Shown here piece by piece: positions 1,643-37,814 of a DNA stretch of 64,000 nucleotides (position 1 is its first letter; every line of letters starts with the position of its first letter). Made by a program: the position numbers and the translations under genes. Origin of the DNA: a phage. The notes beneath the pieces are model-generated. The model made no database searches, was not told the DNA's origin, and worked only from the letters and a program-made list of their open reading frames with translations. The stretch lies in NCBI GenBank assembly GCA_012628545.1, contig GCA_012628545.1_3035.1; one strand, 5' to 3'.

Positions 1643-3230
<1,588 letters not shown>

Positions 3231-3237
3231 AATAAAA

Positions 3238-3253
3238 TGGGCCTTGCGGCCCA
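3238..3253 (-). terminator. hairpin terminator downstream of nrdB
   Basis: TGGGCC-TTGC-GGCCCA stem-loop followed on the minus strand by TTTTATT. Confidence 0.5.
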
Positions 3254-3257
3254 CTCC

Positions 3258-4436
3258 TTAAAAATATTTTTTAAAACTCATCATAACTTTATCATCAACA
3301 TCATTATCAATCTGTGCAACAAGGTAAGATGACAGTTCTACTTCTTGCGGCGCGGATTGAACATTATCAGAATTAAGGTATTCACGAATCCAAGGATATG
3401 GATGTTTAACCGGAGCATCGGTAATTGGGCATGGAAGACCGCACTGTTTCATACGAGATACAGTTAAGTAATCAATAAAGCTCCACATGCTATTTGTATT
3501 TAATCCAGGAACATCGCCATCTTTAAATAAATGAACTGCCCAATCTTTTTCTTGGCGGTTAACTTCCATGAAAATATCAACTGCTTCTTGTTCACACTCT
3601 TTGGCAATTTTAACCCATTCATCACCATCAGTGCCAAGTTGAAGTTGACGAATAATATATTGTGTACCTTTAAGATGAAGCTGCTCATCACGTGCAATGA
3701 ACTTCATAATCTTGGCATTACCTTCCATGATTTCCATATTCTTGTGGAAGTTAAAGGTACATGCAAAAGATACATAAAAACGAATAGCTTCCAATGCGTT
3801 GATTACGTGCAGGCAGAGGTAAAGAGAGCGCATTAGTTCACGTTTCCAATACATTTCATGCTCTATGGCATCTTCAATAACGTCTTCGTCTGCATTAATT
3901 TCTTTTTGGTATTCGATATCAGCTTTAGCGTTTTCCCAATAACGAGTTTTAATCAGAACATCATCATAATAACGACCAATAGATTCAGCGCGTTTCATAA
4001 TAGCTTCATCTAATACAATCTCATCAAATACCTTTGACGGATCAGTATAAAGATTTCGCATGATATGAGTATATGAACGACTGTGAATAGTTTCACTAAA
4101 AGTCCACGTAGCAACCCATGTATCAAGGCTTGGGTCTGAAATCAATGACATAAGTACAGCAGACGGCGCACGACCCTGAATGCTATCCAAAAGTGATTGA
4201 TACTTCAGATTATTAGTAAAAATATCTTGCTGATATTGAGGAAGCTTGTTAAATTGCGCAGCATCCATCATTAAGTTTACTTCTTCAGGGCGCCAGAAAA
4301 ATGACAACTGCTTTTCGGTTAAATCTTCAAAAACTTTATGACGTTGAATATCATAACGCGCAATACCAAGACCTGAACCAAAAAACATAGGTTCTTTTAA
4401 AACATCAACTGGATTTGTATTAAAAACTGTGCTCAT
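3258..4436 (-). CDS. nrdB: ribonucleotide reductase small (beta) subunit
   Basis: 392-aa uninterrupted ORF recognised as aerobic RNR R2 by overall similarity to T4 NrdB; contiguous (no intron). Confidence 0.9.
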   Translation of the reverse strand: MSTVFNTNPVDVLKEPMFFGSGLGIARYDIQRHKVFEDLTEKQLSFFWRPEEVNLMMDAAQFNKLPQYQQDIFTNNLKYQSLLDSIQGRAPSAVLMSLISDPSLDTWVATWTFSETIHSRSYTHIMRNLYTDPSKVFDEIVLDEAIMKRAESIGRYYDDVLIKTRYWENAKADIEYQKEINADEDVIEDAIEHEMYWKRELMRSLYLCLHVINALEAIRFYVSFACTFNFHKNMEIMEGNAKIMKFIARDEQLHLKGTQYIIRQLQLGTDGDEWVKIAKECEQEAVDIFMEVNRQEKDWAVHLFKDGDVPGLNTNSMWSFIDYLTVSRMKQCGLPCPITDAPVKHPYPWIREYLNSDNVQSAPQEVELSSYLVAQIDNDVDDKVMMSFKKYF

Positions 4437-27453: not shown

Positions 27454-27603
27454 TTACTGCATGACTGTGATAACTGTCATGATAACACGTTGAATTCCGA
27501 ACGCAAGAAGACCTCCTGCTACGGCTGGAACAACACCTAAACCCGCCAGTAAAATGCTACCAGATACTAATGCAGCGCTTGTAATACCAATGAATGGACT
27601 CAT
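27454..27603 (-). CDS. small hydrophobic membrane peptide, 49 aa
   Basis: MSPFIGITSAALVSGSILLAGLGVVPAVAGGLLAFGIQRVIMTVITVMQ; ATG overlaps the TGA of gene 52 (ATGA); followed by a strong hairpin terminator. Confidence 0.4.
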   Translation of the reverse strand: MSPFIGITSAALVSGSILLAGLGVVPAVAGGLLAFGIQRVIMTVITVMQ

Positions 27604-28928
27604 TTGATTTCCTCTAAATCTTTGGTGTATTCGGTAACTACATCAGTAGTTTTCCAATATTCGTTTTCTTCTTTTTTAGCTTTAGCTTCTTCAGCAAGTT
27701 TCTTTGCTTCATCGGAAGTCATATGAAAAATATTCATTCCAACTAGTTTATCAACATAAGAAGAATACATATCGATTTTCGAAAGTTCTTCGGTCAGTTC
27801 TTTACGAGTTTTACCCTGTACAACAATTTCACCTGAAATTACTTTCTTAATGAAATGTGCCTTGGCAAAGGCTAAACGAAAAGCTGACTCAGTTTCTTTG
27901 ATTTTGTTATCAATTCGTTTTTGGACATAAGTTTTACGAACTTCAACAAAGTCTTTGATTAAATCAACTACGTTATCGTAAACTTGTAGTTTTCCTTTCT
28001 CATTAATAACCGTAATATTCTGAGAACGACGCTCAATCAACCCGAAGTCTTTCATAATTTTTGCATGGCGTTCTTCTTCGTTATCGCTCAAAGAATATTC
28101 TTTGCGGAATTTAACTTTGAATCCAAAACCGTGCTCACCACAAGCATCATCCCATGTAATGAAGCCTTTATCTTCAAGTGGGTCTAAGATTTTACTCACA
28201 TAAGTTTCACGATCATACTTATACGGAATCTCAGTGATATGCATTTGAGTTCGTGAAGTAAACTTGTACGTTCCACGAATTTCATATTGACCGTCAATCT
28301 CAACGACTTCACCACGAAATTCTGGGAATTCTACCTTCGGTTTAGTTACTTTCTTTCCTTGAAGAGCTTGCAGTACAGCTTTCTTGACAGAAGAAACACT
28401 ATGAGGAAGAATGTAAGTTGCATAACCAGTTGCAATACCGGAAACACCATTAAGAAGAACAGTAGGAATAATAGGCAAATAGAAAGCAGGCGGAATGTGT
28501 TCTTTATCTTGATGTACCGGAGCATATTCAGTATCTTTATATACGTTATAGAAATTTTTACTTACACGAGCAAAAATATAACGACTTGCTGCTGCTTTTT
28601 GGACGGTACGAGAACCAAAGTTTCCTTGACCATCTAACAGAGGAAAGTTATTATTCCAAGTGTTAGCCATCAAAGCACCTGCATCTTGTGCAGAGTTTTC
28701 ACCATGATGATATCCAAGGTCCGCTACACCACCTGCAATAGAAGCGAGTTTATGAAATTTATCTTTATTTCCTCGTGCCAAATCAAGAGCTCGAGCAATA
28801 ACAAATCGTTGAACTGGCTTAAATCCGTCAATCATATTTGGGATAGCACGATTTTCAACCGTGTACATAGCATAAGCCAGTGCTTCATTATCAATGATAC
28901 TTTTTAAATCGCGATTATTCAGTTGCAT
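27600..28928 (-). CDS. 52: DNA topoisomerase II medium subunit gp52 (GyrA-like)
   Basis: 442 aa; region DGFKPVQRFVI...; active-site tyrosine-containing GyrA-homologous region; length equals T4 gp52. Confidence 0.9.
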   Translation of the reverse strand: MQLNNRDLKSIIDNEALAYAMYTVENRAIPNMIDGFKPVQRFVIARALDLARGNKDKFHKLASIAGGVADLGYHHGENSAQDAGALMANTWNNNFPLLDGQGNFGSRTVQKAAASRYIFARVSKNFYNVYKDTEYAPVHQDKEHIPPAFYLPIIPTVLLNGVSGIATGYATYILPHSVSSVKKAVLQALQGKKVTKPKVEFPEFRGEVVEIDGQYEIRGTYKFTSRTQMHITEIPYKYDRETYVSKILDPLEDKGFITWDDACGEHGFGFKVKFRKEYSLSDNEEERHAKIMKDFGLIERRSQNITVINEKGKLQVYDNVVDLIKDFVEVRKTYVQKRIDNKIKETESAFRLAFAKAHFIKKVISGEIVVQGKTRKELTEELSKIDMYSSYVDKLVGMNIFHMTSDEAKKLAEEAKAKKEENEYWKTTDVVTEYTKDLEEIK

Positions 28929-32844: not shown

Positions 32845-35022
32845 TTAGGCCGCAAGGGCCTTCATAGTTTTAGCGATTTGGGAAACTTCATCATCACTTA
32901 AAGAGTTGCGATAACCGATGAAGTCGGAAACAATACGGAATTTCTTGGTAAACTCAGCAACCATTTTATCACTATTTTTTGAAGCATTACGTGATAATTC
33001 ATCAAAGAGATTAGTTACTGTCCAGATATCATGACCGATGGTATCTTTTCCACCATTGAAATACACACCGCGTAATGAACTAACCATATTACCAAGTCGT
33101 GTATATTCTTCAGAAACTTCATCTGTACTGAAGTACTTCATCATAAAATCTAGTTCAGGATACTTGATAATTTTATCAATATATCGTTGAGCTGAACTTG
33201 AATAACCTACATACTTATCATAATCTACATCATCAAAAGCATCTACATATAAATCACGCAAAGCTTCAAAAATACATTGGCACTGACCGAGTTCTTTTAC
33301 CTTTTTCTGTAAAAGCGGACGAATAACATAAAATTCATTAATGCCAATAAGATTAGCCATACGAATCAAAATATTCATAGATGGATGACAAAGTGATGTA
33401 GTACCATCCATAGAGAAAATATCAGAACGATGCATATACGCTACATAACCAGTAATTTCATCTGCTTCTGACGTAAGTGTAAATAATTCCTCTTTTTCCC
33501 AACGCCCGTCTTTAATTTCAAACTTAAATGCTGTAGCAGCTTTAGGACGAGGAGCTTTACTTTTAACTACCTTTGGAATATAGCTTTTAACTAAAGCTTC
33601 AATTTCTGACAAATAATGAATGTTAACTTCATCACTTTCAAACATTGCCATAATATCAGGTAGTAAATCAATCTGCGATTCTACTTCCGGATTAATAAAC
33701 AGAAGACGCTCATTGTGATGAATATTTAAAGTGTTATTAAATTCACTATCATCTAGCGCATGTGCTAATCCACGGACAATATTAACACGATTTTTAATAT
33801 TATCAATAACGATATTAATTTTTGTTGTATTAATACCAAACAGACGATAACTTGACGCAACGGCTGATGTTTCATGACTTTGCTTAATGCGTTTCAGTCG
33901 AGGGTCAAGATTTACTTCATACACAACTCCTGCATTGCATAACTTACTGTCAGGTTCAAACATGCTCTGCATCTTTTTATATGACAGATTTTTAGTCGTG
34001 AATTTGACTGAATTACTAATCATATAATCTCGAGCAGAATACCCCATCTTCATCAATTCACGATATGTGTGACGAGGAGATGTAGATTCTTTAAATCGTT
34101 TTACATCTTCATTAAATGCTTTCTCACTGAGTTCTTTAACTCGTTCAATAATATTTTTACGAGTACGATCATCCAGTGAAAGAGCCTCGCGAGATGGAGC
34201 AATATCCAGTGAACCCATTGGAAACTTAATGTAATTCACTTCATTGCGAATGCTTAGCCAGTTACGGTCTCTAATAACACCATCGATAGGATAAACAATA
34301 CCGCCATAGATAGCATATAATCCACCACGATCAGGCCAGTATCTTTCTGGATTTACACCATAATAATCATCAAAATCAGGAAAATAATCAATTTCGCGGT
34401 CAAGACCATTAATGATAGCCAAATCTTTGAACGGTCGCATGATATAAGAAACTTCATAAGCAAAGTTTCTAAAGTCTTTTTCTTCAACTGGAACTACGAT
34501 TTCAATACCAGTTTTATCATCTGGACCCATTTCTTTTACGAATGTAGGTTTAATCTGTGGGCCATCACCATCCATGTAAGCTACATAACCACGAATTTCA
34601 CCTTTATGATACGAAGTAATACTAAACGTATCAGTATAACTAAACGGAGATTTAGAACCTAAACCAAATCCGCCAATAAAGTCATTAGATTCAGCCTTAG
34701 ATGAACTGAAGTATGAATTATACAGCCCAGGAGAATTATCATCACCCTGAATATCAAAATCACTCATACCCGGACCAAAATCTCGACAAACAAATCGTGG
34801 ATCTAATCGTCCTGGAACTTGAATGATAAATTTTTCAGGATTTCCATTAAGTGCATGAGCATCAATCATGTTAGTAATCAATTCACGGACTACTGCGCGA
34901 ATCTTGTTTGTATACAAATCAGATGACAGAATTTTAAATACTTTAGGATTTGCTGCGATGCTAAATGCTTTTGATTTAGAACCATTGCCAAGAATTGTTT
35001 CTTTTTCAGTGGTGATAATCAT
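32845..35022 (-). CDS. rIIA: rIIA protein
   Basis: 725 aa; N-terminal GHKL-like ATPase-type motifs; same length as T4 rIIA. Confidence 0.9.
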
Positions 35023-35032
35023 AATTTCCTCA

Positions 35033-35305
35033 TTAATTCATATTACGTTTAATAACTTCAGCAACTTCTAGTAGTTCATCTTTAGTTGCGGTGTCGGATT
35101 GAATTTTATCTCTAATATCTTTAAAGCGGTTTTTAAATTCTTCGGCTTCTCCCATATCGAAAAAGCGTTGAATGATTCTATATTCTCGATGAACTGCTTT
35201 ATCAAAAAGTTCTAAATTTACTCTATATGATTTCATTTCAATATCCTCATTTGCCCAATTAATTATACCACATCCTTGTGTAAAGTAAACTACTGGCTCA
35301 TCCAT
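35033..35305 (-). CDS. hypothetical protein, 90 aa (rIIA.1 position)
   Basis: ORF between 39 and rIIA; early promoter (35262..35290) upstream. Confidence 0.45.
35262..35290 (-). promoter_or_regulatory. early promoter inside 3' end of gene 39
   Basis: GTTTAC-N17-TATAAT on minus strand, upstream of rIIA.1/rIIA. Confidence 0.5.
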
Positions 35306-37107
35306 TCTTTACGAAGGTCAGCATTATCTCCCATGAGCATTTCAAAAAGCTCTTTCCAATTCTCAGGAAGTTTAACAACATCATATACTGGATTTTGAAT
35401 CATCTCACGATATTCAGATTTTTCCAAAGAGCCAAGTCCCTTAATATAACGGATGCTATGTTTAGGTAGAGCATCTTTGGCACTCTCATATTCAGCGACT
35501 GTATAAAACCATTCTTGTTTTTTACCGACCTGAGCGATGATTACAGGAGTTTTGACAAAGCGAATTCGTCCTTGCTCAAACAATTCTGGCCAATTACTAA
35601 AAAATCCGAGCAGAGAAGGATAAATGCTTCCTAGACCATCATGGTCAGCATCAGTCATAATAGCAATATTGCGATAATTCAAGTTTTCAGCTTTTTCACC
35701 AAGAACTAGACCAGTGATTGCGCAAATATCAAATAGTTCTTTGTTTTTAAGCATATCGGCATATGACATACCCCAGCTATTAAGAACTTTACCGCGCAAT
35801 GGATAACCACCATGAAGTTCTTTATCGCGAACATCAATAAGATATCCGATAGCTGAATCACCCTCAGTCAAGAACAATGTAGTGTCAGCATCTTTACCGC
35901 AAAGATTCGCTTTAATATGTTTATGAACCTTAGCTTTAGAAGCCTTTTTAGCTGCTTTAGTTTCTGCTGCTTTTTCTGCCGCCAATTTACGAGCCAAAGC
36001 AGCTTCAATAATCGGCATCAGAATTGCTTCATTATTTAGAATAGCGCGTGAAATCTTTTTAGCGTCAAGTTGAATATGACTACGAATTTCGCCAAATGGA
36101 GAAGTCAAACGCTCTTTAGTTTGAGAATCAAATCGCATGTTTTTCATATCACGAACAAACATAACGATAGTCAAACATTCTTTGACACGTGCTTTAGTTA
36201 CATCAATTTTGAACTTACGTTTGATTTGTGGAATAAGGTCTTCACAAATATCATCCATAACACAGTCAATGTGATGGCCACCATTCTTAGTGTGAATGTT
36301 ATTCACGTAAGTTAATTGACGAAATCCATCCGGCGAACGACCAACCGCAATAGAACAATTTTCTTGTTCTTGAACAATAGCATGTTCATCATACTGTCGT
36401 GCATATTTCTTAAAATTACCCTGAACCTTTTTACCATTAAAGGTAAATTGAATATCAGGATAAACAACAGCAAGTGTCTGGAGACGATCTAGTGTAATGT
36501 CAAGATAAACTTGGGACAGCTCATTAGTTTCAAATGACATAAAATCAGGAATGAAAGTAACACGGGTTCCTTTCCATTTTCCAGGAATATCTTCCCATGA
36601 TTTATTTTCCATGCCGTTTGAACAACGAACTACAATATTATTTTGACCATCGCCAGTTTCACCAACAAACATCACAGAAAAAATGTTTGTCAAACTAGAA
36701 CCAACGCCATTCATACCACCGGTGACACGTTCTTTATCATCACCGAAGTTACCACCTGCTTTTGGAATAGTCCACGCAGCAACAGGACCAGGAATTTCTT
36801 CACCGGTAGGTGTTTTAACCATCGCCTGTGGAATACCACGACCGTTATCTTCAACTGTTACTTGATTATTTTTAATAGTAACATTAATTTTATTTGCGAA
36901 TTTAAACTTAGTACGAATACCTTCATCTACTGAGTTATCGATAATTTCATCAATAAGCTTAACAAGACCAGGTACATACTGAACACTTTCCCATTTACCA
37001 AACAGAAATCGCTCATGCATTTCATTAGCTGAAGAGCCAATGTACATGCCGCTACGCTTTTTGATATGTTCAATATCGCTCAGAATTTTAATTTCATTCT
37101 TAATCAT
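35290..37107 (-). CDS. 39: DNA topoisomerase II large subunit (GyrB-like ATPase + TOPRIM), uninterrupted
   Basis: 605/606 aa; GHKL ATPase motifs (DNGRGIP, GGMNGVGSS) and TOPRIM region (IAIMTDADHDGLGSIYP) in one frame; no coding gap at the DHDG/LGS junction. Confidence 0.9.
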   Translation of the reverse strand: MIKNEIKILSDIEHIKKRSGMYIGSSANEMHERFLFGKWESVQYVPGLVKLIDEIIDNSVDEGIRTKFKFANKINVTIKNNQVTVEDNGRGIPQAMVKTPTGEEIPGPVAAWTIPKAGGNFGDDKERVTGGMNGVGSSLTNIFSVMFVGETGDGQNNIVVRCSNGMENKSWEDIPGKWKGTRVTFIPDFMSFETNELSQVYLDITLDRLQTLAVVYPDIQFTFNGKKVQGNFKKYARQYDEHAIVQEQENCSIAVGRSPDGFRQLTYVNNIHTKNGGHHIDCVMDDICEDLIPQIKRKFKIDVTKARVKECLTIVMFVRDMKNMRFDSQTKERLTSPFGEIRSHIQLDAKKISRAILNNEAILMPIIEAALARKLAAEKAAETKAAKKASKAKVHKHIKANLCGKDADTTLFLTEGDSAIGYLIDVRDKELHGGYPLRGKVLNSWGMSYADMLKNKELFDICAITGLVLGEKAENLNYRNIAIMTDADHDGLGSIYPSLLGFFSNWPELFEQGRIRFVKTPVIIAQVGKKQEWFYTVAEYESAKDALPKHSIRYIKGLGSLEKSEYREMIQNPVYDVVKLPENWKELFEMLMGDNADLRKEWMSQ

Positions 37108-37176
37108 CACTTATCCTCGTTTGGTTTCGGGAATATTATACTCCGGTAATCATAAAGCTAAAGGCCCGAAGGCCTT

Positions 37177-37446
37177 TTATTTAAAACGAATAGTTGAATC
37201 CTTAAAGAACAGCCCAGAACATACTGTTCCTTCTACTTTCTGCCCGGTAGGTCCAATAGCACGAAATCCAGTATGTTGGAAATCATTTTCAGAACAACCG
37301 AACCAGTTATATCCAGTGATTTCAATATTAGTAAAACCGCTTGAAGATAAAACTTTGGTTGCATTATCAGCATCAGTACATCCTACTAAAGACACTGTTA
37401 ATACTAATGCTGCAATAGAACGATTAATATATTTCATAATTTTCAC
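37177..37446 (-). CDS. predicted lipoprotein, 89 aa
   Basis: Signal peptide with lipobox LVGC (MKYINRSIAALVLTVSLVGCTD). Confidence 0.45.
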   Translation of the reverse strand: MKIMKYINRSIAALVLTVSLVGCTDADNATKVLSSSGFTNIEITGYNWFGCSENDFQHTGFRAIGPTGQKVEGTVCSGLFFKDSTIRFK

Positions 37447-37814
37447 TTAAATTTAATGGCTTGAAGAAGACTAATAATTCTCAAGCGACTTCTTTCATCT
37501 TTAACTGTAAAAGAAAGAGGGTCACCAGATTTCATAGTAATAGTACATTCAAAATCAAAATCTTCGGAAACTTCTTTGAAGAAGTCAAATTCTTCATCAT
37601 AAATTAGAACATTACTCTGACAACTATGAAGAATTTTTCCATCATTTCCAGATGCTGTACTAATCATTGTAACATTATGACCTTTCATACCTTCAATGAT
37701 AAATTCACTAGTCAATATTACAGCATTAATAGAACTATTCCTATTACTAGCAGAAAGTAGATATTTCTGTTCTTCACCTTCACGAATGCAATATTTCTTA
37801 CCGATTTTAAACAT
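37443..37814 (-). CDS. hypothetical protein, 123 aa
   Basis: ORF in 39-downstream cluster. Confidence 0.4.
   Translation of the reverse strand: MFKIGKKYCIREGEEQKYLLSASNRNSSINAVILTSEFIIEGMKGHNVTMISTASGNDGKILHSCQSNVLIYDEEFDFFKEVSEDFDFECTITMKSGDPLSFTVKDERSRLRIISLLQAIKFK

Follow-up and report, generated by a model that had tools for sequence, protein, structure and literature searches.

The large subunit of the type II DNA topoisomerase of this phage is encoded by a single uninterrupted gene 39. The window in which it lies is the whole stretch of phage DNA that we analysed, 64,000 nucleotides in length. Our best explanation, which taken as a whole we consider very likely to be correct and which nothing in the sequence contradicts, has four parts. 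The window comes from the genome of a Tequatrovirus (T4-like phage); its gene 39 is the undisrupted form, uninvaded by the MobA homing-endonuclease element; its translation is ordinary and collinear, without recoding; and its product and gp52 together make up a two-subunit, ATP-dependent type IIA topoisomerase of the T2/T6 type.

The list of open reading frames in the window contains a single minus-strand frame at 35290..37110, which is 606 aa long when counted from a GTG codon, and translation of 35290..37107 on the same strand gives 605 aa with no internal stops. Both results agree with an earlier note on this DNA, which had described the large subunit as one unbroken gene. The note had also given its length as 606 aa; the single ORF stands, but this number includes the GTG and the protein is 605 aa long from the ATG at 37107. 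We therefore place gene 39, encoding the topoisomerase II large (GyrB/ParE-like) subunit, at 35290..37107 (minus strand) as 605 uninterrupted codons and a TAG stop. A Shine–Dalgarno sequence, GAGGA, can be read at 37114..37118 (minus strand), with a spacing of 6 nt to the ATG at 37105..37107. For the GTG at 37108..37110, which directly precedes the ATG, the spacing is only 3 nt, and the N-terminus MIKNEIK is common to gp39 of T4, T2 and T6 and to the protein from the window. Because of this spacing and these N-termini, translation almost certainly starts at the ATG, and the GTG start of the 606-aa form was ruled out on the same two grounds. A phmmer comparison with T6 gp39 (PDB 8ylu_C) covered residues 1–605 with E = 0 and 1382 bits. 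This match shows that gene 39 is genuine and not a chance ORF. The nearest records label it "DNA topoisomerase II large subunit" or "60plus39", the latter being the name used in the records of RB32 and RB51.

The point at which T4 genes 39 and 60 are split corresponds to a position after codon 473 of the window gene, between 35689 and 35688, and the 50-nt bypass site to a position after codon 491, between 35635 and 35634. Both junctions are uninterrupted in the window. The earlier note had spoken of a single junction and had quoted the peptide NIAIMTDADHDGLGSIYPSLLGFF as encoded contiguously at about 35600..35680. This peptide is residues 480–503 and its coding sequence is contiguous at 35599..35670, so that the lack of an interruption was correctly seen; however, there are two junctions and the peptide covers the bypass site only. 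Codons 490–494 read GAT GGT CTA GGA AGC. As a comparison, the bypass site of T4 has a GGA take-off codon, then TAG and then the 50-nt gap, whereas codon 491 of the window gene is GGT (35635..35637). A take-off/landing pair of GGA codons or a stop at the junction was what the note had proposed to look for; the codon at the take-off position is GGT, and the site contains neither a stop nor a 50-nt insert.

The DNA that is replaced by the MobA element in T4 is present in the window as a 63-nt "parental" segment at 35626..35688 (minus strand), corresponding to gene nt 1420–1482 and codons 474–494. The 5' edge of this segment (35689/35688) coincides with the T4 gene 39/60 split point. High DNA identity to T4 ends at 35690 and resumes at 35625, and between these positions identity to homR, which is encoded by the T4 element, is only 76% over the alignable 46 nt. 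Codons 476–491 share 46 of 48 nt with T2 versus only 35 of 48 with T4 homR. Similarly, the 9 nt past codon 491 are CTAGGAAGC in both the window and T2 but TTAGGTTCT in T4, and gene nt 1390–1510 are identical to T2 with the exception of codon 479. The MobA element is described as 1097–1106 nt long, inserting after residues 466–473 in RB14 numbering, removing 55–75 nt of the parental gene, substituting a homR that is 67–81% identical and ending just past D490/G491, with a further 9 nt in the clade of E. coli phages (bioRxiv 10.1101/2022.08.31.505936). The edges of the segment in the window agree with these boundaries, and the window is thus a parental genome in the sense of Manning & Atkins.

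We also searched the whole 64-kb window for the element. With the intact 272-aa MobA of HY01 as a tblastn query the best E value was 3.7. With the complete 1097-nt HY01 element as a blastn query only the 46-nt, 76% identical equivalent of homR was matched, and a blastn-short search located no copy of the 50-nt gap of T4 in the window. These results bear out the claim that the gene has neither a mobA-type insertion nor a coding gap. T4 has a 43-aa C-terminal tail on gp39 and a 30-aa N-terminal tail on gp60, whereas the window has neither, and alignment with T4 revealed no element-derived C-terminal extension of ORF1 or N-terminal extension of ORF2 in the window protein.

The unsplit form is also the common one. 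A 2.5-kb region matched 580 phage records, of which phage GiZh was the top match at 99.3%, and many Tequatrovirus isolates share ~96% identity with the window over a stretch of 25 kb. The T4 element region had matches in only 43 records. We then used a 141-nt probe across both junctions and took the DNA to be contiguous where at least 80% of the probe was covered in one place. The junction DNA was contiguous in 920 of the 994 matching records, including those of distant straboviruses of Klebsiella, Acinetobacter and Erwinia; in T4-type records merely 29% of the probe was matched. In phmmer alignments, neither junction breaks the collinearity of the window protein with human Topo IIα and IIβ, yeast Topo II, ParE and GyrB. 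Because the gene is collinear with cellular outgroups and with distant phage relatives, these data support the idea that the unsplit state is ancestral for gene 39, as had been proposed from the sequence of this phage. The literature agrees that the unsplit gene is ancestral and that insertions of the element are recent and repeated (bioRxiv 10.1101/2022.08.31.505936). The split gene of T4 with its 50-nt ribosome hop is therefore the exception, and the unsplit gene is the normal state, seen in T2, T6 and most sequenced relatives.

A different history is that the arrangement was restored secondarily. An ancestor would have carried the MobA/bypass element, which was then removed by a precise deletion or overwritten through gene conversion, with a co-infecting unsplit phage as the donor. 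Mosaicism is extensive among T-even genomes, and both progressive loss and "hit and run" of the element are reported from other clades (bioRxiv 10.1101/2022.08.31.505936). The flanks of the locus are also uneven in their likeness to T4. The first 200 nt downstream of the parental segment (in the flank 35290..35625) have 100% DNA identity to T4, versus 92–93% for the last 200 nt upstream (in the flank 35690..35890). This step in identity points to a boundary of recombination or co-conversion at the MobA site, and recombination breakpoints near the locus would fit with a restored gene. However, the protein is not shortened and has no remnants of the CTE or NTE, and the 63-nt segment and the 9 nt past codon 491 are T2-type (46/48) and not T4 homR-type (35/48). 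The parental type of the segment rules out a simple deletion of the element. What fits is only full replacement by parental DNA, which leaves a sequence identical to the never-invaded state, and the unsplit form, being that of the large majority, is the more parsimonious one. We consider restoration very improbable.

An uninterrupted ORF could also arise from an assembly or consensus error, for instance if reads from a mixed population collapsed an insertion. Nothing that we found speaks for such an error. Against it, the same contiguous arrangement is found at 95–100% identity in hundreds of independently sequenced phages, and purifying selection clearly acts on the intact frame, since 65 nt differences from T2 result in 2 amino-acid changes. 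The chance of such an artefact is close to negligible. The reading that we prefer is an ancestral gene 39 that has probably not been invaded.

A gene of this kind may be open to invasion. In the preprint, MobA is described as nicking T2 ~20 nt upstream of the gap site, with protection conferred by the gap insertion only (bioRxiv 10.1101/2022.08.31.505936), and the T2 gene is said there to be nicked by MobA and made split in mixed infection, with reference to Bonocora et al. 2011. Around the reported nick position the window has the T2 sequence, codon 479 excepted. Because the T2-type target sequence is kept, we infer that MobA could home into gene 39 of the window during a mixed infection. Codon 479 (35671..35673) is CGC (Arg) in the window versus CAT (His) in T2 and T6, and no other difference from T2 occurs in the ~120 nt surrounding the MobA target. 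Only 20 of 994 records reach at least 99% identity to the window across the 141-nt junction probe. Sensitivity to MobA could differ because codon 479 sits within the region that MobA recognises. It is a long shot that the 2-nt change at codon 479 gives resistance to MobA without the bypass cassette, or that the asymmetry of the flanks marks a homing or co-conversion tract and the locus is a revertant.

The domains and catalytic motifs of a complete large subunit are all found on the one chain. The GHKL ATPase domain covers residues 47–149 (36661..36969, minus strand; Pfam HATPase_c, E = 2e-9) and contains the N-box EIIDNSVDE (54–62), the G1 motif DNGRG (87–91) and the G2 motif GGMNGVG (130–136). 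The transducer (DNA_gyraseB) domain follows at residues 250–384 (35956..36360, minus strand; Pfam PF00204, E = 1.5e-13) with its QTK loop at residues 329–331 (36115..36123) and a conserved FDS just before it. TOPRIM is also complete on this single chain. Its catalytic glutamate lies in EGDSA at residues 415–419 (35851..35865, minus strand), identified by motif search and by the alignment with T4 gp39, and its DxDxD site, DADHD (486–490), lies in the metal-binding motif DADHDG at residues 486–491 (35635..35652, minus strand), identified by motif search. A C-terminal TOPRIM-associated domain covers residues 519–604 (35296..35553, minus strand; Pfam TOPRIM_C, E = 4.3e-7). As a comparison, in T4 the EGDSA motif is carried on gp39 and the C-terminal TOPRIM-associated domain sits on gp60.

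The partner subunit is encoded by gene 52 at 27600..28928 (minus strand), a GyrA/ParC-like DNA-cleavage subunit of 442 aa (Pfam DNA_topoisoIV, E = 9e-77) that is labelled "topoisomerase II medium subunit" in related records. The mode of action is established knowledge for type IIA topoisomerases. By the scheme known for these enzymes two gp39 and two gp52 would form a heterotetramer in which the GHKL domains would dimerise upon ATP. The TOPRIM Glu and DxD residues would hold Mg2+, the tyrosine of gp52 would cleave DNA and a second duplex would go through the break. Our use of this scheme draws on structural work with the T6 and T4 topoisomerases (PMC11461880). The T6 enzyme, which like that of T2 is made up of two subunits, was purified and shown to be active (Nat Commun 2024, PMC11461880). 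Because its gp39 is identical to the assayed T6 gp39 at 602 of 605 residues, the enzyme of the window phage is probably active in ATP-dependent relaxation.

The genes surrounding gene 39 are in T-even order. Downstream are rIIA (32845..35022, minus strand) and rIIA.1 (35033..35236), and upstream of gene 39 are 39.1, an extra ORF, 39.2, goF and cef. A sub-threshold Pfam match of rIIA to HATPase_c_3, which has the GHKL fold (E = 1e-4, 22.6 bits with a cut-off of 25), was seen in this gene that adjoins the GHKL-containing gene 39. At rIIA.1, a 90-aa ORF at 35033..35305 that would overlap the 3' end of gene 39 was considered and rejected; Pfam RIIA.1 spans only its residues 24–90. Related records annotate a 67-aa form at 35033..35236, and because of this we take there to be no overlap between rIIA.1 and gene 39. 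A strong promoter-like extended –10 site, TTTACT-16-TATAAT (35262..35289, minus strand; 10/12), overlaps the last codons of gene 39 and is upstream of rIIA.1.

At the other end of gene 39, a GGCC-TTCG-GGCC hairpin (about 37160..37178, minus strand) comes directly after the 39.1 stop and is followed by AGCTTTA and then by TATAAT (37135..37140). From their sequence, the hairpin and TATAAT (37135..37178) resemble a terminator with a gene 39 promoter behind it. A terminator scan of 34950..37500 returned none, the T-run of the hairpin upstream of gene 39 being too short for the scan. Between 39.1 and 39.2 there are ~372 nt (37440..37811) that are present in T2 and missing from T4. They hold an ORF for 123 aa (37443..37814, minus strand) that had no Pfam match and is unannotated in GiZh; its homologues elsewhere carry names of the RB32ORF005c or SP18_gp007 type.

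We also noticed two oddities of the T4 reference record. In NC_000866, codons 326–328 of gene 39 encode LIR (CGATT-GATTCGTCAA) versus FDS (CGATTTGATTC-TCAA) at 36124..36132 of the window, and FDS before the conserved QTK loop is common to the window, T2, HY01 and an independently resequenced T4 (MT984581). The difference amounts to a compensating –1/+1 pair of indels, and LIR probably reflects a mistake in the old reference record or a peculiarity of its strain. The T4 reference protein with LIR, NP_049621.1, is the sequence behind the T4 cryo-EM construct (PMC11461880). The second oddity concerns mobA. The resequenced T4 genomes MT984581 (at 1711..2529 of the retrieved piece) and OZ209023 have an intact 272-aa mobA frame in a 1097-nt element, and NC_000866 (at 2971..3789 of the retrieved piece) has a 1108-nt element with an annotated 37-aa mobA remnant and gene 60.1. 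The label "mobA pseudogene" may therefore apply to T4 only in the reference record or strain.

For annotation, gene 39 should be called as one 605-aa subunit from the ATG at 37107 with no recoding. The unsplit gene 39 of T2 and T6 has been known for decades, and a 2011 PNAS paper by Bonocora is reportedly among the published accounts of the unsplit gene or the MobA element. A gene 39 of the T2/T6 type is thus already known and is nothing novel (Manning & Atkins 2022; Nat Commun 2024). The observation carries little weight alone, as the element is already known to be a mobile cassette that inserts into such genes and structures of the T6 enzyme have been solved. It adds one MobA-naive "recipient" genome for comparative work on the spread of the bypass element.

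Comparison with the known enzymes places the window protein with those of T2 and T6. Residues 1–473 of T4 gp39 aligned with residues 1–473 of the window protein (466/473 identical, 99%) and residues 27–160 of T4 gp60 aligned with residues 472–605 (128/134 identical, 96%). The alignment passes directly from residue 473 of gp39 to residue 27 of gp60, and T4 gp39 474–516 and gp60 1–26 have no counterpart in the window protein. This comparison with gp39 plus gp60 had been proposed in the earlier note and shows that the C-terminal part of the window protein is homologous to gp60. The T4 genes flanking gene 39 are those of the window. A comparison with T2 gp39 had also been proposed. The T2 protein has the same length (605 aa) and differs at two residues (603/605 identical), which are F70 and R479 in the window versus L70 and H479 in T2, and the two genes differ at 65 nt (96.4% DNA identity) with only these 2 amino-acid changes. 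T6 gp39 (PDB 8ylu_C) is identical at 602 of 605 residues, with R479 versus H479 among the 3 differences. Both T2 and T6 gp39 have the domain order and length of the window protein, and these phages share the gene neighbourhood rIIA, rIIA.1, 39, 39.1, extra ORF, 39.2, goF, cef.

Among cellular enzymes, the GHKL–transducer–TOPRIM order is collinear with ParE, GyrB and the N-terminal half of eukaryotic Topo II (phmmer E values of 1e-59 to 1e-35 over residues ~6–603), and the phage subunit is shorter than the B subunits of cellular type IIA enzymes. The T4 enzyme relaxes DNA and does not supercoil it. Genomes with a parental Topo2L gene are 96–99% identical within Topo2L to relatives that bear the element, and they lack both the split and the element (bioRxiv 10.1101/2022.08.31.505936). 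RB14 and RB32/RB51 ("60plus39") have the "parental" Topo2L genes of Manning & Atkins, and the window gene is in the same category with no substantive difference, so that the RB14 numbering (D490/G491, with insertion after residues 466–473) is directly valid for it.
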